Below, one piece after another: positions 46,409 through 64,000 of a DNA stretch of 64,000 nt (position 1 is its first letter; each line of letters starts with the position of its first letter). A model generated the notes under the pieces. It made no database searches and was not told the DNA's origin. It saw only the letters and a list, made by a program, of their open reading frames with translations. This DNA comes from Nannocystis pusilla (GTDB lineage Bacteria; Myxococcota_A; Polyangia; Nannocystales; Nannocystaceae). Location: NCBI RefSeq assembly GCF_020073745.1, contig NZ_JAIRAU010000002.1, positions 17,694 to 81,693 of the forward strand. Reading direction: 5' to 3'. A program made the position numbers and the translations under genes.

Positions 46409-46601
46409 GGCCCGATGCCAGTCCCCGAGCGGGCTCGGGAGGGGTCAGGAGGGGTCGCTGCTCCTCTCGCAGAACGCCGATGATAGGGGCGTTCGGCCAG
46501 CGGTCGTGCGGATCTCGGGCCACGATGGGACCGACGCGCAGCGCGGCCGGCGTGGCGGAGCACAGGCGAGGGCTGCTCGGAATGGTGCGGCGTCGCGGCG
46601 A

Positions 46602-48398: not shown

Positions 48399-48539
48399 GT
48401 CGGGACGATACCTCAGAAAATCGGCCCCGGGCCGGACGTGGCGCGGGCGCGGGCGCGCAGGCCGGCGAGGCCCGCGATGGCGGGCGCGCGAGGTGAGGCG
48501 AGCGACCGCCGGCGCGGTCGCGAGTCGCAGCGGCGCAGA

Positions 48540-48900
48540 AGGTGACGCGAGTGACAGGTCGCGGCCGCAACATGGGGCCGAGGCGAGCGCGTGGCGGGGA
48601 GACCCGGGACGCGGAGGTGACGCGTGCGGGTGGCGGGCGCGAGGAGCCGAGACGAGCGCGTGGCGGGGAGACCGGGGCGCGGAGGTGACGCGTGCGGGTG
48701 GCGGGCGCGAGGGGCCGAGGCGAGCGCGTTCGCGGAGGTGACGCGTGCGGGTGGCGGGCGCGAGGGGCCGAGGCGAGCGCGTTCGCGGAGGTGACGCGTG
48801 CGGGTGGCGGGCGCGAGGGGCCGAGGCGAGCGCGTCACGGTGAGTCGGGAGGTCGGCCGTGCCGGCCGAGGCGAGCGCGTCGCGGTGAGACCGGGCGCTG
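48540..48900. repeat. Tandem direct repeat array: 53-68 bp unit GGAGGTGACGCGTGCGGGTGGCGGGCGCGAGGGGCCGAGGCGAGCGCGTTCGC, 4 full plus 2-3 partial copies
   Basis: Unit starts at ~48613, 48681, 48734 and 48787, with partial copies at ~48540-48611 and 48840-48900. It lies in the divergent intergenic region between 46602..48398 (-) and 49151..51859 (+). Confidence 0.85.
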
Positions 48901-49150
48901 GCAGGTCGTGCGGAGCCGTGCCGCGCGGACGCGGCGCGGGCTGGCCGGCGGAGGCGCGGAAGGGCCTGGAGGACGCGGGAGACGGCGGTCCGCGGCCCCG
49001 GCGAGGCCGGTCCCGGGTCGACGAGCCGCGGACGGCGGGCGATCGCCCGGACCTCGGCGGGGCGGCGCGGGTCGCGGGCGAGGATGCGCGCGGCGGCGAC
49101 TCGGGGTATGAGGGGGCGCCGCGCGCGACAGGCGGGCGGCGAGCAACACC

Positions 49151-51859
49151 GTGCCCGATCTGCCCGTCTCGCCTCCCTCGCCCCGCGGCCTCGACCTTCC
49201 GGGCGCCGCCTCCGAATTCGCGTCGCTCGTCGACGAGCGGCTGGCCAACGGCGCCCGCCTGCTGATCTTGCCGGCCCGCCCGGTCGGCGCCGGACCGGCG
49301 GCGATCCAGCTATGGGTGGGCTCGGGGACCGCGGCCGAGCGCCCGGACGAGCACGGGTGCGCCCACCTGCTCGAGCACATGCTCTTCAAGCCATGTGCTC
49401 TGGGACATGGCCCGAAGAGCATCCGCGCGCGCCTGGCGAAGGCCGGGGTGCGGCGGACCGAGCCGGCGCTCGACCTCGCGGGGGCGATCGAGGCGCTCGG
49501 CGGCGACATCAACGCGTTCACCAGCCACGACGAGACGGTGGTGCACGTGACGGCCCCGGCGGCGCGGGCGGCCGAGGCGGCGGCGCTGATCGCCGCGGCG
49601 ACGCTGCACCCGACGCTCGACCCGACCACGCTGGCGCAGGAGCGCGAGGTGGTGATCGAGGAGATCAAGCAGTACGACGACGACCCGGGCCAGCGGGTGA
49701 CGCAGGCGGCGCTCGGGCGGGTGTACGGGGGGCACGCGTACGCGCGGCCGGTGCTCGGGCTCGAGGCCGAGGTCGCCGGCCACACGGCGGCGCGGCTGCG
49801 GGCGTATCACCGCCGGGCCTACGCGGGCGAGCGGCTGACGCTGGTGGCCGTCGGCGCGGTCGACGTGGCGGCGCTGCGCAAGGTGGCGCGGGCGACCGTC
49901 GGGGCGCTGCCGGCCGCGCCGGCCCGGCGGCCGACGGGCGAGCCGGCGCCGCGGCCCGGGGTGACGGTGAAGCGCGCCGAGGTCCAGGAGGCCTATGTGC
50001 TGCTGGCCTGGCCGGCGCCCGCGGCCGGGGCGGCCGACGCGGCGGCGATCGACGCGGCGGCGGTGGTGCTCGGCAACGGCGAGTCGTCGCGCCTGGTCGC
50101 CGAGACACGGCGCAAAGAACAGGTCGTTTCGGACATCCAGGCCCACTGCGACACGCTGCGGCTCGGCGGGTCGGTGCTGGTGTCGGCGCGCACGACCGCG
50201 GCCCAGGCGGCCGCGGCGGTGACGGCGGTGCTGGCCCAGGTGCGGCGGCTGGCGGCGGCGCCGGTGTCGCCCGAGGAGCTGGCGCGGGCCAAGGCGATCC
50301 TCGAGAGCGACCTGGTGTACCGGCGCGAGACGGTGCAGGGGCAGGCGCACGCGCTCGGGGCGTGCGCGACGATCTTCGGCGACCTGGCGCGCGAGCGCGA
50401 GTACTACGCGGCCCTGGCCGCGCTGACGCCGGAGGCGGTCCGCTCGGCCTGCGCCCGCTGGCTCGACCCGGCGCGCGCGTGCGTCAGCCTCGAGCTGCCG
50501 CGCGCCGAGGTGGATGTCGCCAAGGCCAGGTCGGTCAAGTCCGCGGTCGACGCGGCGCTGAAGCCGGCGGAGGGGCCGCGGCGCGACGGTCCGGCGCCGA
50601 AGCGCGCGCCCGACGGGATCGACACGCTGACGCTGCCGAACGGGCTGCGGCTGCTGGCGCGGGTCGAGCGGGCGGTGCCGGTGGCGGCGGGCTGGCTGAT
50701 CTGGCCCGGGGGACAGCGGCGCGAGCCGGCGGCGCTGGCCGGCTCGAACTCGGTGGCCGCGGCCCTGCTCACCCGCGGCAACGCGCGCATGGACGGCGAG
50801 GCGCTGAGCCGGGCGATCGACGGCATGGCGGCGGGGCTCGACGGGTTCGCCGGCCGCAACAGCCTCGGGCTGCACTTCGAGTGCCTGGCGCGCCACTTCC
50901 CGGCGGTGCTCGGGCACGCGCTCGACTGCACGATCACGCCGACGTTCGCGGCCGACGAGCTCGAGGAGGAGCGGCGCGTGGCCCTGCAGGATCTGGCGGC
51001 GGAGGTCGACGACCCGGGCCAGGTGGCGTCCCGCGGGCTGCACAAGCTCCTGTACGGCGAGCACCCGTTCAGCCGCCCGGTCCGCGGCACTCCCGAGGGG
51101 CTGCGCGCGCTGACGCCGGCCAAGTTGAAGGCGCTGTGGCGGCGCGACTACCCGATCGGCCAGGCGGTGCTGGCGCTGGCCGGCGACGTCGACGTCGCGG
51201 CGGCGGCGGCCCAGGTCGAGGCGGCGCTGCGCGAGGCTGGCCTCTGGGACAGGATGTCCGAAAGGCCAGGCAAGGCGAAGCCGGTGCAGGCGCCGCGAGG
51301 GCCGCGCGAGCGCGAGATCTTCCAGGACCGCGAGCAGGCCCACATCGCCCTCGGCTGGCCGGGGATCGCCGTCGGCGACGAGCGCGAGCCGACGCTCGAC
51401 GTGCTCAGCGCGGTGCTCGGCGGCCAGACGGGGCGGCTGTTCACGGCGCTGCGCGAGGTCCAGGGGCTGGTGTACGAGGTGTCGATGTCGAGCGTCGAGG
51501 GCGTCGACGCCGGTCACGTGGCGATCCACGCGTCGACCAGCCAGGACAAGCTGCCGAAGGCGCTGGCCGCGATCGCGGCGGAGGTCGAGCGCGCGGTGCG
51601 AGAGCCGCCGTCGCCGGCCGAGGTGGCGCGCGCGCAGGCGTGGCTGGTCGGCCAGTTCGAGCTCGGGCAGCAGCGCCGCAGCCGGATGGCGTCGCTGCTG
51701 GCGCTGTCGGAGGTGTACGGGCTGCCGCGGGCGCGCGCGTTCGCCTACCCGCAGCGGGTCCGGGCGGTCACGCCGGAGGGGGTGTGGGCGCTGGCCCGCA
51801 CGCTGTTCCGCCCGCAGGTCGCGGCGCGCTGCGTGGTGCGGGCGAAGCGGCGCAAGTGA
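49151..51859 (+). CDS. M16 family zinc peptidase (pitrilysin/insulinase-like), two tandem M16 units
   Basis: Inverted zinc motif HLLEHM (HxxEH). Downstream GGDINAFTS...ETV. 902 aa is consistent with two M16 halves. An ~18-aa insertion (PCALGHGPKSIRARLAKA) sits right after HMLFK relative to the usual HFLEHMxFKGT...NAFTS spacing. Confidence 0.8.
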   Translation: MPDLPVSPPSPRGLDLPGAASEFASLVDERLANGARLLILPARPVGAGPAAIQLWVGSGTAAERPDEHGCAHLLEHMLFKPCALGHGPKSIRARLAKAGVRRTEPALDLAGAIEALGGDINAFTSHDETVVHVTAPAARAAEAAALIAAATLHPTLDPTTLAQEREVVIEEIKQYDDDPGQRVTQAALGRVYGGHAYARPVLGLEAEVAGHTAARLRAYHRRAYAGERLTLVAVGAVDVAALRKVARATVGALPAAPARRPTGEPAPRPGVTVKRAEVQEAYVLLAWPAPAAGAADAAAIDAAAVVLGNGESSRLVAETRRKEQVVSDIQAHCDTLRLGGSVLVSARTTAAQAAAAVTAVLAQVRRLAAAPVSPEELARAKAILESDLVYRRETVQGQAHALGACATIFGDLAREREYYAALAALTPEAVRSACARWLDPARACVSLELPRAEVDVAKARSVKSAVDAALKPAEGPRRDGPAPKRAPDGIDTLTLPNGLRLLARVERAVPVAAGWLIWPGGQRREPAALAGSNSVAAALLTRGNARMDGEALSRAIDGMAAGLDGFAGRNSLGLHFECLARHFPAVLGHALDCTITPTFAADELEEERRVALQDLAAEVDDPGQVASRGLHKLLYGEHPFSRPVRGTPEGLRALTPAKLKALWRRDYPIGQAVLALAGDVDVAAAAAQVEAALREAGLWDRMSERPGKAKPVQAPRGPREREIFQDREQAHIALGWPGIAVGDEREPTLDVLSAVLGGQTGRLFTALREVQGLVYEVSMSSVEGVDAGHVAIHASTSQDKLPKALAAIAAEVERAVREPPSPAEVARAQAWLVGQFELGQQRRSRMASLLALSEVYGLPRARAFAYPQRVRAVTPEGVWALARTLFRPQVAARCVVRAKRRK

Positions 51860-51904
51860 GCGCGGGCGCCGGCGCGCGGCGCTTCGCGTGGGCGAGAGTG
51901 CGTG

Positions 51905-52072
51905 TGTCCGAAAGGATATGCTCTTTCGGGCATGTGCTCTTCTATGTGTACAGGAAGACATGTCTGCGGAGACATGTCTTGTTCACCTCGCGCGCTCGGA
52001 GGCGCGGCCCCACGGTCGCCATCGCAGGGGACGTGATGAAAAGGACATGTTTTAAGAGGCATGTCTTCGGGG
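51905..52072. repeat. Intergenic cluster of 14-nt-periodic CATG-core decamer repeats (lower-GC island)
   Basis: ccgaaaggATATGCTCTttcgGGCATGTGCtctt...AGACATGTCTgcggAGACATGTCT...GGACATGTTTtaagAGGCATGTCT. Each decamer pair is separated by 4 nt. Confidence 0.8.
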
Positions 52073-52999
52073 CTAGCTGCGAGCGCGCCGCGCGGTGGCC
52101 CGGGCGGAGCCGCGCCCGACGTGCGCGCCGAGGCCGGCCCACAGCGCGTCGAAGACGGTCCGGCAGCGCCGTGAGGCCTTGAGATCTTCGTGCATGGCGA
52201 GCCACATCTCGACCTTCGGCGCGAACTCGCCGGCGAGCACGCGCACAAGCCCGGCGCGGCGGGCCAGCGAGACGTGGCAGGCACCGATCCCGCACCCGGC
52301 CCGGATCGCCGCGAACTGGGCGACGTCGTCGTCGGTGCGGAAGCTGAAGGCGTCGCGCGTGAGCGGCCGGCCGCCGAGGCGCAGGGTGCCGGTGTACGGG
52401 GCGGGCACGTCGAAGCCGACCAGGGCGTGCCGGGCCAGGGCCGCGGGAGTGGTCGGGGCCGGCCGGCGCGCGAGGTAGCCGGGCGCGGCGAACAGGCCGA
52501 GCTCGAAGGCGCCGACGCGTTTGGCCAGCAGCGCGCCCTGGCTCGGGCGAACCGTCCGCACGGCGATGTCGGCGTCGCGCCGCACGAGGTCGGCGATCCG
52601 GTTCGACACCACCAGCTCGACGACGATGCCGGGGTGCTCGGCCTGGAGGGCGGCGAGGACCGGCGGTAAGACCTCGGCGGCGACGATCTCGCTGGCGGTG
52701 ATCCGCACGGCGCCGACGTTCTCGGCCAGCGGGCCCGAGGCCTTGCGCAGCAGCGAGTCGGTGGCGGCGACCAGGGCCTCGACCTCGGGGCGCAGCGCCT
52801 CGGCGGCGGGCGTGGGCGCGAGCCCGCCGCGCGAGCGGGTGAACAGGGGCAGCCCGAGCGCCGCCTCGAGCGCGGCGACGTGACGGCCGAGCGTGGGCTG
52901 GCTGAGTCCGAGCCGACGCGCGGCCGCCGACAGCGAACCCTCGCGCAGGACCGCGGCGAACGCCCGGTACAGCGACCAGTCCGGCGGAGCGAGAGACAT
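52073..52999 (-). CDS. LysR family transcriptional regulator
   Basis: N-terminal wHTH (LYRAFAAVLREGSLSAAARRLGLSQPTLGRHVAALE) and a LysR substrate-binding domain. Divergent from the epoxide hydrolase gene. Confidence 0.85.
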   Translation of the reverse strand: MSLAPPDWSLYRAFAAVLREGSLSAAARRLGLSQPTLGRHVAALEAALGLPLFTRSRGGLAPTPAAEALRPEVEALVAATDSLLRKASGPLAENVGAVRITASEIVAAEVLPPVLAALQAEHPGIVVELVVSNRIADLVRRDADIAVRTVRPSQGALLAKRVGAFELGLFAAPGYLARRPAPTTPAALARHALVGFDVPAPYTGTLRLGGRPLTRDAFSFRTDDDVAQFAAIRAGCGIGACHVSLARRAGLVRVLAGEFAPKVEMWLAMHEDLKASRRCRTVFDALWAGLGAHVGRGSARATARRARS

Positions 53000-53081
53000 T
53001 CAAGGATGAATAGACGTTCCCCACTTTTATGCAATTCCAAACGGATGGCCGGACCGGCAGGTTCGCGGGCGGAGACCGAAC

Positions 53082-54194
53082 ATGCAGACCATCGACGTCC
53101 AGCCCTTCACCGTCGCGGTGCCCGAGGCCGCGCTCACCGACCTGCGGCGCCGCCTGGCCCAGACCCGCTTCACCGACGCGCTCGCCGACGCCGGGCCCGA
53201 CTGGGGCGTCGAGCCGGCGGCGCTGCGGGCCCTGGTGGCCCACTGGCAGCGCTTCGACTGGCGCGCCGCCGAGGCGGCGATCAACGCGTTCCCGGCGTTC
53301 CGCGCGCAGATCGGCGGGATCGGGCTGCACTTCGTGCACGCGCGCGGACGGGCGCCTCGGCGGCTGCCGCTCGTGCTCACCAACGGCTGGCCGAGCTGCT
53401 TCACCGAGCTGCTGCCGCTGGTGCCGCTGCTGACCGAGCCGGTCGACGGGGTCGGGTTCGACGTGGTGATCCCGTCGCTGCCCGGATACGGCTTTTCGGA
53501 CAGGCCGAGCCGGAGCGGCATGAACATCACCCGGATCGCGGCGCTGTGGGCCGAGCTGATGGCCGAGCTCGGCTACCCGCGGTTCTTCGCCCACGGCAGC
53601 GACATGGGCGCGGGCGTGGTCGAGCGACTGCGGGCCGACCACCCCGAGCGCGTGCTCGGCATCCACATGGTCAACGTGTTCTGGGGCTATCCGCGGCCGC
53701 CGGCGCCGACGCCCGCGGAGGCGGCGTACCTCGAGCGCGGGCCGCAGTGGCAGCAGCGCGAGGGCGCCTACGCGGCGCTCCACGCGACCCGGCCGCACAC
53801 GATCGCGGCCGGCCTCAACGACTCGCCGGCCGGCCTGGCGGCGTGGATCGGCGAGAAATTCGCGGCGTGGAGCGAGCGGCCGCCGTCGCTCGACGCGCTG
53901 TGCACGATCTTGACGATCTACTGGGTGACCGAGACGATCGCGTCGTCGCAGCGGCTGTACCGCGAGACATTCGCCGACGCGGGCGCGATGGCCCCGCCGC
54001 CCCGGCGCGGGCCGCCCGTGGCGGTGGCGATCTTCCCCGGCGACATCCTGCCGGCCCCGCGCGCGTGGGGCGAGCGGTGGTTCGAGCTCGCGCGTTGGAC
54101 GGAGATGCCGCGCGGCGGCCACTTCCCCGGCCTGGAGGCGCCCGAGCTGCTGGCGGCGGACATCCGCGCGTTCGCGGCGGGGCTCGTGGCGTGA
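53082..54194 (+). CDS. Epoxide hydrolase (alpha/beta-hydrolase with N-terminal EHN domain)
   Basis: Epoxide-hydrolase N-terminal-domain-like start (FTVAVPEAALTDLRRRLAQTRF), GIGLHFVHARG and alpha/beta-hydrolase features. Confidence 0.7.
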   Translation: MQTIDVQPFTVAVPEAALTDLRRRLAQTRFTDALADAGPDWGVEPAALRALVAHWQRFDWRAAEAAINAFPAFRAQIGGIGLHFVHARGRAPRRLPLVLTNGWPSCFTELLPLVPLLTEPVDGVGFDVVIPSLPGYGFSDRPSRSGMNITRIAALWAELMAELGYPRFFAHGSDMGAGVVERLRADHPERVLGIHMVNVFWGYPRPPAPTPAEAAYLERGPQWQQREGAYAALHATRPHTIAAGLNDSPAGLAAWIGEKFAAWSERPPSLDALCTILTIYWVTETIASSQRLYRETFADAGAMAPPPRRGPPVAVAIFPGDILPAPRAWGERWFELARWTEMPRGGHFPGLEAPELLAADIRAFAAGLVA

Positions 54195-54200
54195 CGGGCG

Positions 54201-54520
54201 ATGGCTGGACTTGAGGGCATGTTCGTGAGGGCATGTCCTCCCGGCCATGAGCGCGCGGCGACGGGCGCGCGGCCGCGGAGACATGTCCATGAGCGTATGT
54301 CCTCGGGTTCACGCGCGTGCGAACCGGCGCTCCTCGCCGACCGGCGGCGATTCGCTCGTCGGGGCAGCAGGAACGACGCGGCGGCGCGAGCGAGGCGGCC
54401 CTCGCTCGGGCGCTTCATGGCAGTCTCGTCGGAATAGCGACAGCTACCGGAGCCGCTCGAGTGGAGCGGTCCAGTCATGCCCCGGCGCGCGAGGCGGGTT
54501 GTCCTTGAGGGCATGTCCTC
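54201..54520. repeat. Intergenic cluster of 14-nt-periodic CATG-core decamer repeats
   Basis: GGGCATGTTCgtgaGGGCATGTCC (54218-54241), AGACATGTCCatgaGCGTATGTCC (54279-54302), GTTGTCCTTGAGGGCATGTCC (54495-54515). Confidence 0.75.
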
Positions 54521-54734
54521 AGGGCCAGTCGTCGAGATCGAGGCCGCGGCCGAGCTCCGGGTCGGCCGCGAGCAGGTCCCGCAGGGTGGCCTCGCGCAGG
54601 CCGAGGGCGCGCGCGCCGGCGCTCACGCTGGCCTGGGCCGTCAGGACGGCCCGGACCTCGCGGCGGAAGGCGGCGGGATCCGTGCGGCGCAGGGCCAGCA
54701 GCAGCGGCTCGCGGGGCTCGGCGGGGAGGGTCAC
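54519..54734 (-). CDS. Small Fis-type HTH protein (71 aa)
   Basis: SVSAGARALGLREATLRDLL resembles the Fis/NtrC C-terminal HTH. GTG start, no clear RBS. Confidence 0.35.
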   Translation of the reverse strand: MTLPAEPREPLLLALRRTDPAAFRREVRAVLTAQASVSAGARALGLREATLRDLLAADPELGRGLDLDDWP

Positions 54735-54772
54735 GCGCGGACTGTAGCGCGCTTGTCGCCGGCGGGGCGGTC

Positions 54773-55381
54773 GTGCTTCAGTCGCCCGGGATGACGAGGC
54801 GACGGACAGGCGCGTGGTCGTTCGTGGGGCTGATGTTGCTGGGGTGCGACCCGGCCGGGCGCGAGCGGGCGGCGCTGCAGGCCGAGCTGGAGGCGATGTC
54901 GGCGCTGCTCGCGGAGCACCGGGCGCAGATCGAGGCGCTGCAGGCCGATCTGGTGCAGCAGCAGCTCGCGCTGCAGGAGTGCCGACGGCCGAGCGCGCCG
55001 AATTTGCCGGCGCTGCCGGCGAGCGGGCCGGACGCGCCGGCGCTGACGCCGACGTGCGACGCCGGGGTTTGCGTGGTGAAGCGCGCCGAGTTCGAGGCGC
55101 TGATGGAGGCGCCGGCGGTGCTGGCCCGGCTCGCTCGCGTGATCCCGTCGACGCGAGAGGGGAAGGTCGTGGGGTACAAGCTGTACTCCGTCCGGCCGGG
55201 CACGCCGCTGGAGCTCGCCGGCTTCAAGAACGGCGATCTGATCCAGACCATCGACGGTGAGGCGCTCGGCGGCGCCGACGAGGTGTTGGGGCTGTTCGTC
55301 AAGCTGCGCCGGCTCGACCGCTGGACGATCGCGGGGCTGCGCAAGGACGCGCCGTTCGAGCTGACGATCGCGGTCGAGTGA
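54773..55381 (+). CDS. Lipoprotein with coiled-coil and a C-terminal PDZ-like domain
   Basis: Lipobox LLGC. EALQADLVQQQLALQ coiled-coil. C-terminal GYKLYSVRPGTPLELAGFKNGDLIQTIDGEAL is PDZ-like. Confidence 0.55.
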   Translation: MLQSPGMTRRRTGAWSFVGLMLLGCDPAGRERAALQAELEAMSALLAEHRAQIEALQADLVQQQLALQECRRPSAPNLPALPASGPDAPALTPTCDAGVCVVKRAEFEALMEAPAVLARLARVIPSTREGKVVGYKLYSVRPGTPLELAGFKNGDLIQTIDGEALGGADEVLGLFVKLRRLDRWTIAGLRKDAPFELTIAVE

Positions 55382-55420
55382 GCGCGAACGGGGGCCTGCC
55401 CGGCCCGGATTCGGATGGCT

Positions 55421-55800
55421 GAAAGGACATGTCGTCGGCGCCAGCCGCGAGCGACGACATGCCCGAAAGGACACGTTCGCTCCGCGGCTCGCCGAGCGCG
55501 CCGTCGCCCTGAGCGACAGCGACCCGATGGGAAGCGCGCTCTCGGTGCTCGACGCCGACTCGCCGGCGTCGACGCGGGTCGGTCGGGGCGGGGCCGTGAG
55601 GTCGCGGCCTGCGGGGGGCCGGGGGCGACGCTCGTAGGACACGGCCCCCCGCAGGGCGGGTCCGTGGAGGCGTTTGTGCATGTTCGAGTGGACATGTCTC
55701 AAGGGACATTTGCGAACGACGGACCCGAGGGGGCGGAGCTGCCCGTGGACATGTGTCCGCATGGACATGTCGTTCGCGCCAGCTCCGGTCGAGTGTCCGC
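55421..55800. repeat. Intergenic cluster of the same repeat family in a convergent region
   Basis: tgaaaGGACATGTCG...CGACATGCCCgaaaGGACACGTTC (55421-55475). TGGACATGTCtcaaGGGACATTTG and GTGGACATGTGTCCGCATGGACATGTCG (55690-55790). Confidence 0.75.
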
Positions 55801-55950
55801 GGGCGCGGGATCTCGCGTCGATCGCCGTCGCGGTCTCGAACGACATTCAGTAACTGGGCGGAGCGCGGAGCGGGTCCGCGCTGTTGACCGGGGTTCAAGC
55901 GCGGCGCGTCGCGGTGTGGCGCGGGCCACACGGATCTGCACCGTGTCGGA

Positions 55951-57720
55951 TCAGGCGGCCGAGGCGACGCCGAGGCTGCGCGCGAGGGCGCGGGCGACGG
56001 CGAGCGGGCGGCCCTTGAACACGCGGACGTAAGGAATGGCGCTGGCCCGGGCGGCGCGGGCCAGGATCCCGTCGATGTTGTGGGCCTGGAAGCCGGTGGC
56101 GATGAGCACGTAGTCGTAGCTGTGGCGCGAGATGCTCTCGCACTGGGCCTGGACCTTGCGGGCGTTGCCGTCGCACCAGGTGATGTCGAGGCCGAGCGAC
56201 TCCTCGAGCTTGGACTTGAGATCGGGGTCCTCGCGGTTGCTGACGAACAGGACCCGCTTGCCCTCGACCTTGGGCCGGACCTGGGCGACGAGGTGCGCGC
56301 CCGGATCGTCGACGTCGTCGGTCTCCTCCTCGAGGTCGCCGTCGCCTTCGGACGGCAGCACGCCGAGCTCGCCGCGCTTGAGCACGTCGTGCAGGCCGGT
56401 GAGGCGGCGACGCAGGCGGCGATCCTCGAACAGGTCGGGCCGCAGGGCGTCGATGCGCGGCCGGATCGGCTGGACCAGCGAGGCGACCTCGGGCGTGTTG
56501 TGGGCGTCGAAGGCCCGCTGCAAGAAGGCGAGCAGGGCCTCGTCGTCGAAGCTGTCGGCGGCCGCCAGCGCGTCGCGTTCGGCCCGCACGGCCGCCTGTT
56601 GCTGGCGCACCTGATCGGCGGAGGGACCGGTGCGGGCCCGCTCCGGCGGGGGGATGAACTCGGGGTCGAGCCAGCGGCGGAGCAGCGGCAGACGCTCGCC
56701 GAGGCGCCCCGCGAGCCAGCGCAGGCGACCCATGACGGCGCCCCAGGTCTCGGGGTCCTCGGCGGCGATGAAGCGACGGATCTCGCGCAGCGCCTGGGCG
56801 TGCTTGAGCAGCGCGTCGAGCTGCTCGTTGGGCAGCTCCTCGGGCGGCGTGGTGAGGTGGCGCGGCGGCGGGTCGGTGACGTTGCCGGCGATGGCCTCGA
56901 TGGCCCGCTGGGCCTCACGCAAGAGCGTGCGCGGCGGGCCCGGCGGGGTCTTGCGCGCGCGATCGGCCCAGCCGTAATCGTCGACCGGGACCTCGCTGGT
57001 CAGCGCCCGATCCTTGTGGTTCTGCACGAACTCGTGGGCCTCGGCCCAGGTCTTCGGCGCGTGCAGGGTCTTGAGCCCGAGCTCGGTGACCACGCACGCG
57101 GGCACGGCGTTCATCTGCAGCGCCTGCACCGAACCCGGCCACAAGGTCTTGCTCAGGTTGGTCAGCTCGTGGGCGATGCGCCGCACCAGCACGGTGATCT
57201 TGTGCTCGCCCTGGAACTGCTCGTCGAAGCTGCGCGCGCGCGAGATCCAGGCCAGCATGTAGACCTTTTGGTAGCGCGGGGACATGAGCGCGAAGTCGGG
57301 GCGCATGTCCTGGATGTCCTTGAGGATCTCTTCCAGCGTCTCGCGCGCCTCGGCGACCGCCGCCGCAGGATAGGTGGGCAGCTGAATTCGGCCGACGATC
57401 GGGCTGCGCGGCTGCTCGGGCTCGGGCGAGGCGGCAGCAGGCGGGGCGGAGATAGGTTCGGTGGATACGGAGGGCGGGACCGGCGCCGCGGGCGGGCGCG
57501 CTGGCTCCTGGAGGCCGTCGCGGAAGCGATCGAAGAGCTGACGCGCCGCCGCCGAGGGGAACATCTGCGTCAGCGCGTCTTCGAGGGCGCTGTCGCGGTC
57601 GGGTCCGCGGCCGAGCCAGCGCTCCGCGTCGCGCCAGATCAGCACCTCGGTCCACTGATGGGTATACATCGCGTGGCGATAGCCGCTGTCCGCGAGAAAC
57701 TTGGGTAGCCCGTCGTGCAT
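55951..57720 (-). CDS. Hypothetical protein (589 aa)
   Basis: Long ORF with high GC3. The C-terminal KRVLFVSNR...YDYVLIATGF...IPYVRV region is reminiscent of DUF2325-like domains. Function unknown. Confidence 0.5.
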   Translation of the reverse strand: MHDGLPKFLADSGYRHAMYTHQWTEVLIWRDAERWLGRGPDRDSALEDALTQMFPSAAARQLFDRFRDGLQEPARPPAAPVPPSVSTEPISAPPAAASPEPEQPRSPIVGRIQLPTYPAAAVAEARETLEEILKDIQDMRPDFALMSPRYQKVYMLAWISRARSFDEQFQGEHKITVLVRRIAHELTNLSKTLWPGSVQALQMNAVPACVVTELGLKTLHAPKTWAEAHEFVQNHKDRALTSEVPVDDYGWADRARKTPPGPPRTLLREAQRAIEAIAGNVTDPPPRHLTTPPEELPNEQLDALLKHAQALREIRRFIAAEDPETWGAVMGRLRWLAGRLGERLPLLRRWLDPEFIPPPERARTGPSADQVRQQQAAVRAERDALAAADSFDDEALLAFLQRAFDAHNTPEVASLVQPIRPRIDALRPDLFEDRRLRRRLTGLHDVLKRGELGVLPSEGDGDLEEETDDVDDPGAHLVAQVRPKVEGKRVLFVSNREDPDLKSKLEESLGLDITWCDGNARKVQAQCESISRHSYDYVLIATGFQAHNIDGILARAARASAIPYVRVFKGRPLAVARALARSLGVASAA

Positions 57721-57900
57721 CGCCCGTTACGCTAGTCTTTTCGCGCTGCTGCTGCAACGAAGGGGCAAAATGCCGCGCGCGGCCCGAGGTCCGCGCGGGC
57801 AGGGTGAGGGCCTGCCCCGGCGGAGGCTGTTCAGCGCCGCGCGCGCCGCGAGGACGCCGTTCGCCGCCCTCGCAATCGGACCTGAACCGCGTGCCGCGGC

Positions 57901-58680
57901 TCAGGTGCCGAGGACCGAGCCGCCGTCGACGCTCAAAGTGGCGCCGGTGATGAAGCTCGACTTCTCGTCGGCGAGGAAGAGGTAGGCGCGAGCGATGTCG
58001 TCGGGCTGACCCGCGCGGCCGACCGGGGTGTGCTCGATCATCGACTTCAGGACCTTCTCCGGGATGCTCTCCACCATCGACGTGGCGACGAAACCCGGGG
58101 CGACGACGTTGGCGGTGATGCCGTAGCGGCCGAGCTCGCGCGCCCATACGCGCGTCATGCCGATCACGCCGGCCTTGGCGGCGACGTAGTTGGTCTGGCC
58201 GAAGTTGCCGTAGAGGGCGACGACCGAGCTGGTGCTGACGATGCGGCCGTACTTCTGGGCGATCATGGTCGGGACGACCGCCTGGGTGCAGTTGAACACG
58301 CCCTTGAGGCAGACATCGAGGACGAACTGGAACTGCTCGGCGCTCATCTGGCCGACCACCTGTCCGTCCTTGACCTTGACCAGCTGGCCGTCGCGGACGA
58401 CCCCGGCGTTGTTGATGAGGACGTCGATGCGGCCGAACCGCTCGACCACGGCGGCGGCCGCGGCGGCGCAGTCCTCGGGCTTGCTGACGTCGACCTTGCG
58501 GGCGATGGCGACGCCGCCGGCGGCGGTGATCGCGGACACGACCTCCTCGGCTGCCTGTTCGGCCAGGTCCCACACGGCGACGGCGTAGCCGGCGTCGGCG
58601 AGCATGCGAGCGGTGGCGCGGCCGATGCCGTTGCCGCCGCCGGTGACGATGGCGATCCGCGGTGAATTGGTGCTTGTCAT
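57901..58680 (-). CDS. fabG: SDR family 3-oxoacyl-ACP reductase (FabG-like)
   Basis: IAIVTGGGNGIGRA (TGxxxGxG), NNAG, YVAAKAGV (YxxxK). Divergent from the ACP-led lipid cluster. Confidence 0.85.
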   Translation of the reverse strand: MTSTNSPRIAIVTGGGNGIGRATARMLADAGYAVAVWDLAEQAAEEVVSAITAAGGVAIARKVDVSKPEDCAAAAAAVVERFGRIDVLINNAGVVRDGQLVKVKDGQVVGQMSAEQFQFVLDVCLKGVFNCTQAVVPTMIAQKYGRIVSTSSVVALYGNFGQTNYVAAKAGVIGMTRVWARELGRYGITANVVAPGFVATSMVESIPEKVLKSMIEHTPVGRAGQPDDIARAYLFLADEKSSFITGATLSVDGGSVLGT

Positions 58681-58853
58681 GGGGCGGCGAGGGTACCGAG
58701 AGGCGCTCGGAGCCGCCTGCACCAAGAGCCAGCCCGAAGATGTGAGCTTGCGCCGTGTCGGTGGGGCAAAGCACGCTCCGCTCGGGTGTCCACGGAGGGG
58801 GAAGGGCGAGGCTTGTCGGCTCCCGGGCGATCCCCGTAGGATGCGCCGACCCC

Positions 58854-59144
58854 ATGACAGATGCCGCCCCGCCCGACGCGCTGGTCCGCGAGATCAAGGA
58901 GCTCATCATCGAGGCCCTGATGCTGCAGGACATGACCCCCGAGGACATCGACCCCGAGGCGCCGCTGCTGGTCGAGGGGCTGGGCCTCGACTCGATCGAC
59001 GTGCTCGAGCTGGCGATGGCGATCGGCAAGAAGTACGGGGTCAAGACCAAGGCCGACGACGCGCAGAACCGGCACATCTTCGCCAGCGTGACCAACCTGG
59101 CCCGCTTCGTCGCCGAGCAGCGGGCGGCCGCGGCGGCGAGCTGA
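58854..59144 (+). CDS. Acyl carrier protein
   Basis: LGLDSIDVLELAMAIGKKYG, with the DSI/DSL phosphopantetheine-attachment serine. ~96 aa. Confidence 0.75.
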   Translation: MTDAAPPDALVREIKELIIEALMLQDMTPEDIDPEAPLLVEGLGLDSIDVLELAMAIGKKYGVKTKADDAQNRHIFASVTNLARFVAEQRAAAAAS

Positions 59145-59156
59145 GAACCGGCGGCC

Positions 59157-59810
59157 GTGATGGCGGACCCTGACGGCAAGCCGCAGCGGGCCGCGGGGGT
59201 CCCGAGGTGGCTCCCGGCGGTGCTGCGTTCGCTGCTGGTCGGCGGCTACCCGCTGGTGGTGTACCTCGGCATGACGCGCTGGAGCCCGCGCACGCTGGCG
59301 CTGGTGCTCGCCTGCGCGCTGCTGCCGGGGCTCGTGCTGCGCCTGCGCGAGGCCCGGCGCGAGGACCTGTGGCCGGTGCTGCGGGTGCCGCTGTCGCTCC
59401 TCGGGCTGTTCGCGGCGGCGGCGCTGTCGGGCGAGCAGCGGCTGTTCATGGCCCTGCCGGTGCTGGTCAACCTGGGGCTTTTGGCCAACTTCGCGGCGAG
59501 CCTGCGCGGGCCGGCGTCGCTGGTCGAGCGGTTCGCGCGGCTGCAGGAGCCCGAGCTGCCGCCCGGCGGGCCGGCGTACTGTCGCAAGGTCACGGTGGTC
59601 TGGTGCGGGTTCTTCGTCGCCAACGCGGCCGCCAGCGCCGCGCTCGCGCTGTGGGCCCCGGTGTCCTGGTGGACGCTGTACACCGGACTTTTGGCGTACC
59701 TGCTGATCGGGGTAATGTTCACCGTCGAGTACGTCGTCCGCAAGGCGACCTTCCGCCGGTTCGGCGACGCGTTGCCCGACCGCCTGCTCCGCCGTCTGCT
59801 CCGCGCATGA
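59157..59810 (+). CDS. Integral membrane protein (possibly COG4648-like, as found in aryl-polyene clusters)
   Basis: Five or six TM helices. Sits between the ACP and AMP-ligase genes. Its stop overlaps the next gene's start (ATGA). Confidence 0.45.
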   Translation: MMADPDGKPQRAAGVPRWLPAVLRSLLVGGYPLVVYLGMTRWSPRTLALVLACALLPGLVLRLREARREDLWPVLRVPLSLLGLFAAAALSGEQRLFMALPVLVNLGLLANFAASLRGPASLVERFARLQEPELPPGGPAYCRKVTVVWCGFFVANAAASAALALWAPVSWWTLYTGLLAYLLIGVMFTVEYVVRKATFRRFGDALPDRLLRRLLRA

Positions 59811-61633
59811 GGTCCTTCGTCCCGCTCGTCTACACCGATCCCGCGGCGCGCGTCGCCGTCGGCGAGGCCGGCCCGCGCAGCGCGGGCGAGCTGATGCGCG
59901 ACGCGAGCCTCGTCGCCGAGCGCCTGCCGCCGGCGCGGCCCGGCAGCGAGGTGCTGGTGGTCTGCGGCGACCGCTATCACCTGGCGGTCACGGCCCTGGG
60001 CGCGTGGCTGCGCGGCCACGCGGTCGCGCTGCCGCCGAACGCCCAGCCGGCGGCGGTGCGCGAGCTGGCGGGGCGGCCCGACGTGGTGGCGCTGATCCAC
60101 GACTCCGACCTGGCCGACGCCCAGGACGTCCGCGAGTGGCTCTCGGGACATGCTCTCGGGGTCATGGCCGATCCGACATGGCCCGAAGCGCTACCGGCGG
60201 ACCGGCGGCTGGCGGTCGTGTACACCTCGGGCAGCACCGGCGACCACCAGCCGTGCGCCAAGACGGCCGGGCAATTGCTCGGCGAGGCGCAGGCGCTGGC
60301 GGCCACGTTCGCGCTGGCGGCCGGCGAGGTGGCGCTGGCGACGGTGCCGCCGTACCACCTCTACGGGCTGCTGTTCGGGGTGCTGGCGCCGCTGGCCGCG
60401 GGGGCGGCGTTCGCCCGCGAGACGCCGCTGCACGCCGAGACGGTGGCGAGGGCGGCGCGCGAGGTCGGGGCGACGGTGCTGGTCAGCACGCCGGCGCACC
60501 TGCGCGGGCTGACGGTGCTGCAGCGCGGCGACCTGCCGCCGCTGCGGCGGGTGTTCTCGTCGGGCGCGCCGCTGCCGCGGGCGACCGCGGACGAGCTGCT
60601 GGCCCAGCTCGGGCTGGCGGTGACCGAGGTGTACGGCTCGTCGGAGACCGGCGGGATCGGCTGGCGGCGGCACGAACAAGTCTTGGGGGACATGTCCCCG
60701 GAGCCAGCCTGGACGCCGCTGCCGGGGGTCGCGGTCGAGGTCGCGGCCGAGGGGCGGCTGCTGCTGCGCTCGCCGTTCCTGGCCCCCGACGCGCCGTCGC
60801 CGTACCCGTGCGAGGACCGGGCCCTGCTCGACGCGCGCGGCGGGTTTCACCTGCGCGGGCGGCTCGACGGGGTGGTGAAGGTCGCCGGCAAGCGAGTGGC
60901 CGTGGCGGAGGTCGAGCAGCGGCTGCTGGCGCTGCCGGCCGTGGCCGACGCGGCGGTGGTGGCGACCGAGACGCCGGGCGCCCGCGGGCACGAATTGATG
61001 GCCGCGGTGGTGGCCCGCGATTCGGGGCGCGACGCCGGCGAGCTGGTGGCCGAGCTGCGGCGGGGGCTGCTCCCGTGGTTCGACCCGGTGGTGGTGCCGC
61101 GGCGGATCAAGGTGGTGCCGGCGCTGCCGCGCGAGCCCAACGGCAAGCTGACGAAGCGGCGCCTGCACGCGCTGCTCGGGCTGACGGCGGAGGAGCCGGC
61201 CGAGGCGGAGCGCGGCGGATCGGTCGCGGCCGCGGACGCGAGCGGGGCTGCGGGGGACTCGGCGGGCGCGGCTGTGATCGGGTTCGAGGTCCGTGGGCAC
61301 GTGCGGCGCGAGGCGGGCGACGCGGCGGTGCACGAGGTCGAGGTCGGGGTGCCGGTCGACCTGGCGTTCTTCCGCGGGCACTTCGACGGCGCGCCGGTGC
61401 TGCCCGGCGTGGCGCAGCTGACGGCCCTGGTGGTGCCGCAGGTGGCGGCGCTGCGGCCCGAGCTGGGGCGGCTGCGGCAGGCGGCGCGGCTGAAGTTCAC
61501 CCGGCCGATCGCGCCGGGCGACGCGCTGGTGCTGCGGCTCGAGGTGCGGGGGACGAGCGTCCGCTTCTCGCTGGCCCGCGCGGGCGAGGTGGTCACCGCC
61601 GGGGCGCTCGAGTACGAGGCGCGCGGTGACTGA
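59807..61633 (+). CDS. AMP-dependent synthetase/ligase fused to a C-terminal FabZ/FabA-type hotdog dehydratase domain
   Basis: AMP-binding motifs YTSGSTGDHQP, SSGAPL, YGSSETG, GKRVAVAEVEQ, PREPNGKL. C-terminal FFRGHFDGAPVLPGVAQL is the FabZ signature. The ATG at 59807 is translationally coupled. Confidence 0.8.
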   Translation: MRSFVPLVYTDPAARVAVGEAGPRSAGELMRDASLVAERLPPARPGSEVLVVCGDRYHLAVTALGAWLRGHAVALPPNAQPAAVRELAGRPDVVALIHDSDLADAQDVREWLSGHALGVMADPTWPEALPADRRLAVVYTSGSTGDHQPCAKTAGQLLGEAQALAATFALAAGEVALATVPPYHLYGLLFGVLAPLAAGAAFARETPLHAETVARAAREVGATVLVSTPAHLRGLTVLQRGDLPPLRRVFSSGAPLPRATADELLAQLGLAVTEVYGSSETGGIGWRRHEQVLGDMSPEPAWTPLPGVAVEVAAEGRLLLRSPFLAPDAPSPYPCEDRALLDARGGFHLRGRLDGVVKVAGKRVAVAEVEQRLLALPAVADAAVVATETPGARGHELMAAVVARDSGRDAGELVAELRRGLLPWFDPVVVPRRIKVVPALPREPNGKLTKRRLHALLGLTAEEPAEAERGGSVAAADASGAAGDSAGAAVIGFEVRGHVRREAGDAAVHEVEVGVPVDLAFFRGHFDGAPVLPGVAQLTALVVPQVAALRPELGRLRQAARLKFTRPIAPGDALVLRLEVRGTSVRFSLARAGEVVTAGALEYEARGD

Positions 61634-62459
61634 GATGTCCGCAGGGACAGGTGAGAACGAGGTGTCCGGAGGGGCAGGTGAGATGTCCGGCGGGACAGGT
61701 CCGTTCCGGCCGTGCGCGCTGATCCCGACCTACGACAACCCGCGGACGGTGCGCGACGTGGTGCTGCGGGTCAAGGCGCACCTGCCCGACGTGGTCGTGA
61801 TCGACGACGGCAGCGGCGAGGCGGGGCGGCAGGCGGTCGCGGCCCTGGGGGCCGAGGGGCTGGCGCACGTGCGCCGGCGGGCGCAAAACGGCGGCAAGGG
61901 GGCGGCGGTCAAGACCGGGTTCCAGTTCGCGCGCGAGCTCGGCTACACCCACGCGCTGCAGGTCGACGCCGACGGGCAACATGACCTCGGGGACATCCCG
62001 AAATTCCTGGCGACCGCGCGCGAGCGGCCGGACGCGCTGATCCTCGGGGCGCCGGTGTACGACGCGTCGGCGCCGAAGGGGCGGCTGGTCGCCCGCAAGA
62101 TCACGCTGTTCTGGACCGACTTCGAGGCCGGCCGCGGGGTCATCACCGATCCGATGTGCGGCTTCCGGGTCTACCCGCTGGACCCCGCGCTGGCGCTCGG
62201 ACGCACCGGCGACCGCATGGACTTCGACATCGAGGTGGCGGTGCGCCTGGTGTGGGCCGGGGTGCCGGTGATCAACCTGCCGACGAAGGTCCGCTACATC
62301 GGCCGCGACGAGGGCGGGGTGTCGCACTTCCGCGTGTTCGGCGACAACCTCAAGATCTCGTGGCTGCACACCCGGCTGTCGTTCCAGCGGGTGATGGTGC
62401 GGCCGTGGATCAAGCTGTGGCGGCGCCTGCGGCGGCCGGCGCTGCCGGCTGGGCGCTGA
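61626..62459 (+). CDS. Family 2 glycosyltransferase
   Basis: CALIPTYDNPRTV...VVVIDDGSGE (DxD)...QVDADGQHD. The first ~19 codons (MTEMSAGTGENEVSGGAGEMSGG) are encoded by 7-nt-periodic repeats, so the real start may be the ATG at 61680. Confidence 0.8.
   Translation: MTEMSAGTGENEVSGGAGEMSGGTGPFRPCALIPTYDNPRTVRDVVLRVKAHLPDVVVIDDGSGEAGRQAVAALGAEGLAHVRRRAQNGGKGAAVKTGFQFARELGYTHALQVDADGQHDLGDIPKFLATARERPDALILGAPVYDASAPKGRLVARKITLFWTDFEAGRGVITDPMCGFRVYPLDPALALGRTGDRMDFDIEVAVRLVWAGVPVINLPTKVRYIGRDEGGVSHFRVFGDNLKISWLHTRLSFQRVMVRPWIKLWRRLRRPALPAGR
61630..61705. repeat. 7-nt-periodic repeat block overlapping the ligase stop and GT2 start
   Basis: gatgtcc gcaggga caggtga gaacgag gtgtccg gagggg caggtga gatgtcc ggcggga caggtcc. 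A 21-nt super-unit GATGTCCGSMGGGACAGGTSM occurs twice. Confidence 0.7.
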
Positions 62460-62462
62460 GCG

Positions 62463-62535
62463 AGAGGACAGGTTCGATCGGCCATGGCGGAAGAGGCAGG
62501 TTCGGAGGGACATGTCCCGGCGGTCAGGCCCGAGG
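62463..62535. repeat. Five contiguous 14-nt units of the repeat family at the GT2/acyltransferase junction
   Basis: gaggACAGGTTCGA / tcggCCATGGCGGA / agagGCAGGTTCGG / agggACATGTCCCG / gcggTCAGGCCCGA. Confidence 0.8.
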
Positions 62536-63509
62536 CGAGCGGCGCGGCGACCGGGGGCGCGGGCGAGCGGTCCGGCAGCGCGGCGTCGGCTGTCCCGGCG
62601 GTCAGGTCCGACGAGGGCGACCGGGCGTGGATGACCCGGCCCGAGCGCGGGACGGTGCTGGGGATCCGGGCGACGCTGCTGTTCTGCCGGGTGTTCGGCC
62701 GCCGCGGCGCCGGGGTGCTGCTGGCGGTGATCACGTTCTACTACGCGCTGTTCGCCGGCAAGGCGCGGCGGGCCTCGCAGGACTACCTGCGGCGGATCGG
62801 CCAGCCGCACGGGTTCTGGGCCGGCTGGCGCCACATCTACACGTTCGCCCGCTGCGCGCTCGACCGCGTGTTCCTGGTCCGCGGCGAGACCGGGCGGTTC
62901 CGCATCACCCACACCGGCATCGAGCACCTGCGGGCGCTGCAGGCCGAGGGGAAGGGGGCGCTGCTGCTCGGGGCGCACCTCGGCTCGTTCGAGGCGATGC
63001 GGGCCAGCAGCGTCGACAAGCGGATCCCGATCCACATCCTCGCGTACTGGCAGAACGCGAAGATGATCAACGACTTCCTGCGCACGGTGCAGGCCGACTT
63101 CGACGTGCGGGTGATCCCGATCGACCCGCGCGACACGAGCTACATCCTGACGGCGAAGGAGGCGATCGAGCGCGGGGAGCTGGTGGCGGTGCTCGGCGAC
63201 CGGGTCGGGGTCAACGACAAGACCTGCACGGCCGAATTCCTCGGCGCCCCGGCGCGCTTCCCGACCGGGCCCTATACCCTCGCGGCGCTGCTAAAGTGCC
63301 CGATTTACTTGACTTTCGGTCTTTATCACGGGCCCGACCGCTACGATCTTTATTGCGAGCCCTTCGCCGAACAATTAGAACTGCCCCGGGGCCGCCGCGA
63401 GGCCGCCACCGCCGCCCATGTCCAGCGCTACGCCGAACGCCTCGAGCACTACTGCCGCCTCGCGCCGCTCAACTGGTTCAACTTCTACGAGTTCTGGAGG
63501 GCGGAGTGA
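62484..63509 (+). CDS. LpxL/HtrB-like lysophospholipid / lipid A acyltransferase
   Basis: HLGSFEA (HxGxxE motif of the lauroyl acyltransferase family) and membrane-interacting N-terminal region ITFYYALF. The 5' end overlaps the 14-nt repeat array; an alternative start is the ATG at 62631. Confidence 0.6.
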   Translation: MAEEAGSEGHVPAVRPEASGAATGGAGERSGSAASAVPAVRSDEGDRAWMTRPERGTVLGIRATLLFCRVFGRRGAGVLLAVITFYYALFAGKARRASQDYLRRIGQPHGFWAGWRHIYTFARCALDRVFLVRGETGRFRITHTGIEHLRALQAEGKGALLLGAHLGSFEAMRASSVDKRIPIHILAYWQNAKMINDFLRTVQADFDVRVIPIDPRDTSYILTAKEAIERGELVAVLGDRVGVNDKTCTAEFLGAPARFPTGPYTLAALLKCPIYLTFGLYHGPDRYDLYCEPFAEQLELPRGRREAATAAHVQRYAERLEHYCRLAPLNWFNFYEFWRAE

Positions 63510-64000
63510 GTAGCGCGCGGGTGCTGCTCGTCGGCCCGCAAGGGCTCGGCCTCGGGGACGTCGTCGAGCTGGCCGAAGGGACAGCTTTTCCGGCGCTCGA
63601 CGACGCGCCGGAGTACCGGGCGCTGCTGGCCCGCGGCGCCGATCACCTGGCGCGCCGGCTGGCGTCGGGCGAGGTGGTGTACGGGGTGACGACCGGGTTC
63701 GGCGACTCGTGCGAGACGGCGGTGCCGGCCGAGCACGTGGCGGCGATGCCGGTCAACCTGATGCGCTTTCACGGCTGCGGCACCGGGCGGATCCTCGACG
63801 AGGTCGAGGCGGCGGCGGTGGTGGCGGTGCGCCTGGTGGCGCTGGCGCGCGGCTGGTCGGGCGTGCGCGTCGAGGTGCTCGAGCGGCTGTGCGACCTGCT
63901 CCGGCACCGCCTGTTGCCGCGGATCCCGGCCGAGGGCTCGGTCGGGGCCAGCGGCGACCTGACGCCGCTGTCGTACGTGGTCGCGGCGCTGGTCGGCGAG
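63507..64000 (+). CDS. MIO-dependent aromatic amino acid ammonia-lyase (HAL/TAL/PAL family), 5' partial; continues past the window end
   Basis: GVTTGFGDS and the MIO-forming tripeptide ASG in GSVGASGDLTPLSYV. The GTG start overlaps the upstream stop (GTGA). Confidence 0.8.

Follow-up and report, generated by a model that had tools for sequence, protein, structure and literature searches.

A 64,000-nt stretch of the Nannocystis pusilla genome (contig NZ_JAIRAU010000002.1, positions 17,694 to 81,693), referred to below as the window, contains two genes for unrelated proteins that share the 14-mer GACATGGCCCGAAG. One encodes an AMP-binding enzyme, here called the ligase, and the other a double M16 peptidase. 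In both genes the 14-mer is part of a short array of 14-nt units. Both arrays are probably old, degenerate, in-frame members of a hairpin repeat family of Nannocystaceae that resembles repetitive extragenic palindromes (REPs) and Rickettsia palindromic elements (RPEs). This family of dispersed short repeats is strongly over-represented, and most of its copies are located just downstream of stop codons. The resemblance between the two genes is not a product of chance. The genes and their arrays are positioned as follows:

49151-51859, + strand: double M16 (pitrilysin-type) peptidase gene, 902 aa (Pfam; 97% identical to an N. radixulma protein)
49373-49428, + strand: intragenic array of the peptidase, four 14-nt units starting at 49373, 49387, 49401 and 49415
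59807-61633, + strand: ligase gene, AMP-binding enzyme fused to an ApeI/FabA-like hotdog domain (Pfam; 100% identical to an N. pusilla protein)
60144-60190, + strand: intragenic array of the ligase, three 14-nt units starting at 60144, 60158 and 60172

Structure of the repeat unit

The unit of the family is the 14-nt inverted repeat TGTCC-N4-GGACA, as defined from the flanks of 88 canonical copies in metagenomes. Consecutive units abut, with GGACA directly followed by TGTCC, so that CATG marks the unit junction and the 10-bp palindrome GGACATGTCC recurs every 14 nt. The consensus of 126 units from the window and orthologous loci is RRGGACATGTCCNN. Two neighbouring units can pair as a stem of 10-11 bp with a 4-nt loop. 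The canonical copy, GGGACATGTCC-N4-GGACATGTCCC, is 24-26 nt long and has the form of the short stem-loop palindromes of REP type, which are imperfect and about 20-40 nt long. By inspection, the family core contains no stop codon in any of the six reading frames.

The sequence TGTCCNNNNGGACA occurs 28 times in the window with at most one mismatch, compared to 1.46 ± 1.43 occurrences expected. Nine pairs of CATG are separated by 14 nt, whereas other spacings are represented about once. Triples of the form CATG-N10-CATG-N10-CATG are present only at the peptidase site, the ligase site and the intergenic array at 54218; at both intragenic sites (A/C)CATG is repeated three times with exact 14-nt spacing. 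A 14-nt unit matrix was trained on units from other loci and genomes, with both intragenic sites left out. Its triple-unit score is 34.9 bits at the peptidase site (rank 2 in the window) and 30.2 bits at the ligase site (rank 5), and the best score among 40 shuffles is 9.6 bits. No Rfam family was detected in the window at the gathering threshold. The arrays were not reported by Tandem Repeats Finder, for which they are too short or too degenerate.

The match between the ligase and peptidase genes

The window contains exactly two copies of the 14-mer, 49404-49417 and 60175-60188, and both are on the + strand. Positions 60147-60191 of the ligase gene can be aligned without gaps and in register to positions 49376-49420 of the peptidase gene, at an offset of 10771, with 32 of 45 nucleotides identical (71%). 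Outside the 14-mer, identity is limited to 18 of 31 columns. An earlier reading, made from the sequence alone (the sequence-only reading), had described a nearly identical copy of about 42 nt at 60144-60190. The 14-mer and its positions were given correctly, whereas near-identity is not borne out by the alignment and the ligase coordinates were about 3 nt off. Translation in the frames of the two genes gives the peptides GHALGVMADPTWPEA and HMLFKPCALGHGPKS and confirms that the reading frames differ.

Generic alignment statistics do not separate the pair from chance. With +1/-1 scoring its score is 21, and in the 43.5 kb of the window without the modules of a nonribosomal peptide synthetase (NRPS) gene there are 151 pairs scoring at least 21, compared to 5-10 in shuffles. 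Local alignment with stricter penalties ends the match at 17 nt. The GC content of the window is 72%, and there are 148 maximal exact direct matches of 14 nt. These numbers first suggested coincidence, in which two CATG-rich stretches of a GC-rich genome happen to share a 14-mer. The match is, moreover, partly forced by the proteins: H-M gives CACATG in the peptidase, and in the ligase TGGCCCGAA follows from T-W-P-E, also where an orthologue has no array. Coincidence was nevertheless dropped, since the 14-nt phase of CATG and the family model showed that the generic test is too blunt. Apart from one intergenic array, only the two coding sites have exact-phase CATG triples, no shuffle comes near the family-model scores, clusters of rare codons coincide with both sites, and the 14-mer and its variant recur in unrelated arrays. 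Coincidence is therefore a very improbable explanation.

Six of the 15 codons at the ligase site end in A or T, compared to 23 of 609 in the whole gene; at the peptidase site the numbers are 5 of 15 and 29 of 903. In each gene this is the most extreme cluster of such codons. An explanation at the protein level was ruled out by the differing frames, the unrelated proteins, and the rare-codon clusters at both sites. As the sequence-only reading had proposed, the likeness is at the level of DNA and not of a protein domain.

The 14-mer consists of one repeat arm in the variant TGGCC (in place of TGTCC) and a CGAA spacer, the reverse complement of a TTCG loop. Because TGGCC is the commonest arm variant of the family and CGAA is a recurrent spacer, the exact match points to shared family membership and not to copying. 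An unrelated array from a metagenome contains the 14-mer too, and GACATGTCCCGAAG, which differs from it by one base, was found 11 times.

Intragenic copies in the peptidase and ligase

The orthologous region was fetched from six other Nannocystis genomes. In all six, each of the two arrays is present at the orthologous position, and the 14-mer is kept at both sites in nearly all of them. Among more distant ligase orthologues, the stretch has two units or none.

The first unit of the peptidase array overlaps the codons of the invariant HxxEH-M-L-F active site, and is protein-constrained sequence, not inserted DNA. The array forms a quasi-palindrome, in which positions 49405-49425 are an inverted copy of positions 49376-49396 (17 of 21 nt). 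The corresponding RNA hairpin, 49379-49422, has a predicted energy of -30 kcal/mol (z -4.4, with 0 of 200 shuffles as good). In the AlphaFold2 (AF2) model, peptidase residues 78-90 are a coil located right after the HxxEH active-site helix (pLDDT 88). A peptidase orthologue with 57% identity, on the distant contig L009, contains the canonical sequence GGACATGTCC-CGAA-GGGCATGTCG at this site, read as GAA GGA CAT GTC CCG AAG GGC ATG TCG. Its two canonical units are still in 14-nt phase with the native CACATG, and the sequence comparison indicates that the peptidase copy is older than the genus. Homologues below about 53% identity lack the loop.

The ligase array has the cores GACATG, TCATG and GACATG followed by a CGAAG spacer, and the three cores are read in successive frames as G-H, V-M and T-W. 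The orthologues have the pattern GGACATG-N7-GGACATG-N7-CGACATG, and the amino acids encoded between the cores vary. One ligase orthologue with 67-69% identity contains two units, GAG CAT GTT CTC GAG GAC ATG TCG. The first and second codon positions of the ligase site vary more than those in its flanks. Third positions at the two sites together are variable in 5 of 30 columns, compared to 67 of 197 in the flanks. This trend is the reverse of ordinary protein constraint, although the columns are few and the genomes closely related. Residues 111-120 of the ligase are predicted to be a coil (mean pLDDT 66).

It is possible to imagine that one stretch was copied directly into the other gene, by gene conversion or as part of a recombining cassette, as the sequence-only reading had suggested. 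The two stretches do have in common an exact 14-mer that includes the same T-to-G arm variant and the same CGAAG spacer. However, the sequences agree poorly beyond the 14-mer, seven genomes have both sites fixed at orthologous positions, the peptidase copy appears to predate the genus, and the shared arm and spacer are common in the family. Direct copying is very doubtful. The sequences indicate that the two sites are old family members and not copies of each other, and nothing points to a recent transfer or recombination event between the two. The sequence-only reading is upheld to the extent that both sites are members of a dispersed repeat family that varies in copy number between species.

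Each of the two genes contains a second site:

51238-51268, + strand: peptidase, TGGCCTCTGGGACA and TGTCCGAAAGGCCA, encoding LWDRMSERPG (AF2: residues 701-710 coil, pLDDT 68)
60686-60699, + strand: ligase, perfect palindrome of 14 nt (GGGGACATGTCCCC) that encodes G-D-M-S-P within a lineage-specific loop gapped in distant homologues (AF2: residues 291-300 coil, pLDDT 68)

Distribution and placement of the arrays

Arrays of 2-7 or more units are present in all six other Nannocystis genomes, with 6-9 arrays per orthologous locus of 21 kb, and three arrays are present in contig L009. The canonical double unit was found in 91 metagenome contigs with a median GC content of 72%. By their flanks, the 88 canonical instances form 76 distinct clusters. 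Further arrays are present at 26 of the 92 loci that were analysed.

Most of the arrays are extragenic. Among the 122 arrays that could be classified, 105 are non-coding and 14 are in-frame and intragenic. Besides the ligase and peptidase, about ten further in-frame intragenic cases were found in metagenome loci. In-frame copies are read as GHV(P), DMS or T(C/W); the peptide readings vary because 14 nt shifts the frame from one unit to the next. Non-coding DNA makes up 16% of the window and contains 16 of the 20 RGRCATGTY motifs. The arrays fill three convergent intergenic regions (51860-52072, 54195-54518 and 55382-55950) and two intercistronic spacers. In contrast, no arrays were found in the divergent intergenic (promoter) regions 52999-53082, 54734-54824 and 58605-58854. 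Ends of high-GC3 open reading frames (ORFs) lie within 80 nt of 62 of the 88 canonical copies, and on both sides of 29. The family thus has the placement of REPs, which is mostly extragenic, downstream of ORFs, and between convergent or unidirectional genes.

In contigs L026 (1610-1760) and L032 (3430-3580), four consecutive repeats of 37-40 nt follow directly after a stop codon, each with GGGACATGTCC-TTCG-GGACATGCCCC. The repeat can be drawn as an 11-bp stem with one A·C mismatch and a UUCG tetraloop, in a higher-order, BIME-like arrangement. Only one contig of the viral collection contains the canonical double unit (L104, IMG/VR UViG_3300005675_000065, 8925-8948), and it could be a phage of a Nannocystaceae host or a misclassified chromosomal fragment.

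Changes in unit number between species

The number of units differs between closely related species. Compared to N. radixulma, the window has an additional 14-nt unit at 54213. The spacer between the ligase and GT2 genes is 49 to about 230 nt long across species, with differing numbers of units. The linker between the ligase domains varies from 48 to 115 aa. It has no units in the window and in N. radixulma, and 2-4 'RDMSAGT' units (GGGACATGTCCGCGGGGACAG) in five other species, which indicates that coding sequence has gained or lost units of the family as the genus evolved. Linker residues 458-487 of the window ligase have pLDDT below 50 in the AF2 model.

The arrays could have originated in place by mutation and not from a mobile element, through template switching at quasi-palindromes or slippage between self-complementary units, seeded by a unit-like sequence such as CACATGCTCTTC of HxxEH-MLF. 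The peptidase copy, which duplicates the neighbouring active-site codons in inverted orientation (17/21), fits such an origin, and so do the 14-nt phase with the native CACATG, kept in Nannocystis and in L009, the insertions and deletions in steps of one unit, the variable spacers, and a run of about 18 tandem GAGGACATGCGCGC units in N. pusilla Na p29. Alone, mutation in place leaves unexplained why dozens of unrelated loci, also in distant lineages, have the same arm, and why the 3' ends of genes are preferred. We consider it improbable as the full explanation.

Between the peptidase and LysR genes, N. radixulma has an additional ORF of about 140 aa with arrays on both sides (contig L007, 5563-6181 in the orientation of the window). 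In the window this ORF is absent and the two arrays adjoin. Judged by eye, with no domain search made, its product does not resemble a transposase and has repeats of the GDLTV.G.L.V type. Four distant ligase homologues (P0023, P0031, P0036 and P0045, alignment A1) end with DMSGG(T/S)C(V/A). This is what two units 14 nt apart would encode, and it may be that the called ORFs run into a downstream array.

Proposed spread of the family

The reading that we favour is that the family spreads and expands like selfish hairpin repeats of REP and RPE type, which would occur by transposition or by slippage between self-complementary units. The repeats would be retained where harm is small: at the 3' ends of genes, in spacers and in tolerant protein loops. 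Hairpins of the arrays may end or stabilize mRNAs when transcribed. The two intragenic copies would now only encode loop residues, and may be frozen because a 14-nt step inside a gene would break the frame. In agreement with hairpins that function as RNA, single-transition variants on the sense strand give G·U pairs more often than A·C (21 versus 7, p = 0.013).

Several observations weigh against this reading. Among single-mismatch units for which no neighbouring ORF gave an orientation, G·U exceeds A·C as well (37 versus 13 on an arbitrary + strand), so the G·U test is not clean and its weight is reduced. The skew in the unoriented units may be due to pseudo-replication by tandem copies, or to a real polarity of the unit. 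Compensatory double changes are not in excess (5.8% compared to 5.2% in the null), in a test that is uninformative, as 276 background matches are expected among the 415 with two mismatches. The tags of the REP superfamilies are not enriched: within 12 nt of a copy, GTAG/CTAC was found in 0-1 of 88 cases and CGTC/GACG in 3-10 of 88, and control positions are similar. In the neighbouring genes scanned, no transposase domain was detected above threshold, although no dedicated search was made for a RAYT, the Y1 transposase that the repeats flank in the REPtrons of REP systems. The 4-nt spacers are almost random, with the commonest in 5 of 88 copies, which fits selection on the arms or growth in situ better than copy-and-paste of a master element.

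The two intragenic sites themselves provide further points of this kind. Neither can be demonstrated as a clean insertion, and the loops have variable lengths in homologues. For the ligase site, no significant RNA fold was predicted (z -0.2). The ligase orthologue of contig L012 (67-69% identical) has no CATG and reads ACC TGG CCC GAA, or TWPE, at this position, so part of the 14-mer is older than CATG. The spread of the motifs is also very uneven, with 26 of 28 in the last 19 kb of the window, at 45-64 kb (45400-63600). The left part of the window may have entered the genome more recently, or the family may spread locally. Only two weak matches were found in these first 45 kb, which contain the NRPS gene and several convergent intergenic regions.

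The arrays might be the binding sites of a sequence-specific dimeric protein that recognizes TGTCC-N4-GGACA, with tandem sites loading several dimers. The intragenic copies would then be functional sites, for example roadblocks or markers of the nucleoid or of domains, as proposed for the HIP1 repeat of cyanobacteria. The PadR-type consensus, ATGT-N8-ACAT, is equivalent to TGTCC-N4-GGACA across two palindromes. Protein binding would account for conserved arms with free 4-nt spacers, for the missing compensatory covariation, and for the strong regional clustering of the motifs. It would also account for the CATG cores and rare codons that are kept at both coding sites in seven genomes, whereas neighbouring amino acids change. 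However, the arrays avoid divergent promoter regions and hug stop codons, and their unit numbers differ widely between close species, which is unexpected for conserved operators. The excess of G·U on the sense strand is a further point against operators. No PadR domain was found in the neighbouring genes scanned, where the sole regulator is of the LysR type. Such a role for the arrays is unlikely.

It is also conceivable, though we would not expect it, that the 14-nt arrays of GGACATGTCC are a previously undescribed kind of repeat. With a core free of stop codons in six frames, such a repeat would propagate without a REP-type tag or RAYT, by self-templated growth from unit-like seeds or by an unknown enzyme. 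Myxobacterial proteins would repeatedly acquire new peptide segments from it (GHVP, RDMS), even beside an active site. Alternatively, within the same idea, gene ends would be marked by an unknown system that binds DNA or RNA and recognizes the arrays.

Comparison with known repeat families

REPs are short imperfect palindromes that form stem-loops, are dispersed in many copies, and belong to GTAG- and CGTC-tagged superfamilies (Di Nocera et al. 2013, PMC3733652). They are mostly located downstream of ORFs, between convergent or unidirectional genes, often abut or supply a stop codon, have G·U pairs on the transcribed strand, and in a minority of cases encode extra residues inside ORFs (PMC3733652). 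The Nannocystis family is similar to REPs in its stem-loop palindromes, in its placement 3' of ORFs and in the intragenic minority of copies, and may be similar in its dispersal in many copies and in the G·U pairs of the sense strand. It differs in the lack of a GTAG or CGTC tag and in nearly random loops. Furthermore, the Nannocystis arm is itself a perfect palindrome, so that each unit is both a direct and an inverted repeat, and the units build tandem arrays with a period of 14 nt.

RPEs are selfish DNA inserted in-frame into protein-coding genes (PMC3733652, PMC1779305). Similarly to RPEs, palindromic repeats of the Nannocystis family occur in-frame inside intact, conserved genes, and the family is found between genes as well. 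The encoded peptide segments lie in tolerated loops, predicted as coils in the AF2 models. RPEs were reportedly first described by Ogata et al. in 2000, and RPE-1 has a length of about 100-150 bp. The Nannocystis units of 14 nt, and intragenic copies of 14-56 nt, are shorter than this. Unlike the reduced genomes of the intracellular hosts of RPEs, the Nannocystis host has the large genome of a free-living myxobacterium, and the two families have no sequence relationship.

Arrays of MetJ metboxes consist of tandem 8-bp palindromic boxes, AGACGTCT, which are operators in the promoters of one regulon. The Nannocystis arrays resemble them in having 2-5 abutting palindromic boxes of similar sequence (AGAC-GTCT compared to AGAC-AT-GTCT). 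In contrast to metboxes, they avoid promoter regions and outnumber the needs of a regulon.

The highly iterated palindrome HIP1 of cyanobacteria has the sequence GCGATCGC (PMC5861425, PMC4390886). Like HIP1, the Nannocystis motif is short, perfectly palindromic and over-represented in a single group of bacteria, within and between ORFs. As in HIP1, it may be kept between genomes at positions where the choice of codons is distorted. HIP1 is a solitary 8-mer that is hyper-abundant in genes and tied to orphan methyltransferases, whereas the Nannocystis motif forms phased arrays, is mostly extragenic at the 3' ends of genes, and varies in copy number. Literature searches on the motif and on repeats of Nannocystis and other myxobacteria did not find anything relevant.

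The family accounts for patches of rare codons rich in CATG and for lineage-specific loop insertions in Nannocystis proteins. It provides the myxobacteria with a REP/RPE-like family of unusual phased, self-complementary architecture. Translated arrays flag gene starts and ends that are likely mis-annotated, such as the acyltransferase N-terminus at 62484 and the 'DMSGGTC' tails of ligase homologues. Variation in unit steps between species would serve as a fine-scale typing marker. The ligase linker, with 0-4 units within one genus, offers a natural series for studying how selfish repeats become protein sequence. If the arrays are protein-bound or form the 3' ends of RNAs, they would provide a handle on the definition of gene ends in very GC-rich genomes, in which classical terminators are difficult to recognize.

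Other arrays and repeats in the window

Nine further arrays or array groups, to which no strand is assigned, were distinguished in the window in addition to those in the ligase and peptidase genes:

47695-47795: several TGTC(C/T)-N4-GGACA units inside the ORF 46602-48398 (minus strand; no Pfam match)
51900-51990: intergenic array of 5-6 units that includes AGACATGTCT-GCGG-AGACATGTCT, 41 nt past the peptidase stop between convergent genes (fold z -4.7)
52041-52072: intergenic two-unit array abutting the stop of the LysR gene (52073-52999, minus strand), with the best double-unit score, 33.2
54205-54310: 106-nt long hairpin formed by two arrays in inverted order between convergent genes (-67 kcal/mol, z -5.9)
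54500-54527: intergenic units TGTCCTTGAGGGCA and, directly following, TGTCCTCAGGGCCA, at the 3' end of a small ORF
55423-55475: intergenic hairpin GGACATGTCGTCG...CGACGACATGCCC, followed by GAAAGGACAC
55674-55777: two intergenic arrays, 55674-55710 and 55745-55777, between convergent genes
61634-61700: intercistronic spacer between the ligase and GT2 genes, made of ATGTCC-N4-GGACAGGT hairpin units

The ninth group, 62464-62530 (no strand assigned), consists of five degenerate 14-nt units that extend across the GT2 stop and the annotated N-terminus of an acyltransferase (…SEGHVPAV…).

The folds of the peptidase site and several intergenic arrays have z values of -4.4 to -5.9. The hairpin at 54205-54310 is the sole family member in the size range of MITEs (70-300 bp, with terminal inverted repeats and target-site duplications), and most copies are far shorter. 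A scan for intrinsic terminators gave a single match coincident with an array, at 51900-51937, so a role as classical terminators is unsupported for the arrays in general.

The five degenerate repeat units make up positions 62484-62530, which are annotated as the N-terminal codons of the LpxL-like acyltransferase (MAEEAGSEGHVPAVRPE). This N-terminal region is much shorter in N. radixulma and N. punicea, and the true start of the protein may therefore lie downstream.

The window contains other repeats. A perfect, G-rich 53-nt tandem repeat without relation to the CATG family (three copies, 100% match, with overlapping periods of 68 and 106 nt) is positioned at 48577-48871, in the divergent intergenic region that immediately precedes the peptidase gene. 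The 15-nt tandem repeat GGGTCCGAGAAGTCC is present in about 12 copies at 5787-5967 (also with periods of 30 and 45), within a 1.3-kb gap between convergent genes, and its unit contains GTCC and no CATG core. The NRPS gene, 25399-42708 on the minus strand, is a single gene of 5,770 codons with condensation, AMP-binding and PP-binding domains. Its modules repeat about 7.66 kb apart and are near-identical, with exact matches of up to 414 nt, and they dominate the repeat statistics of the window.

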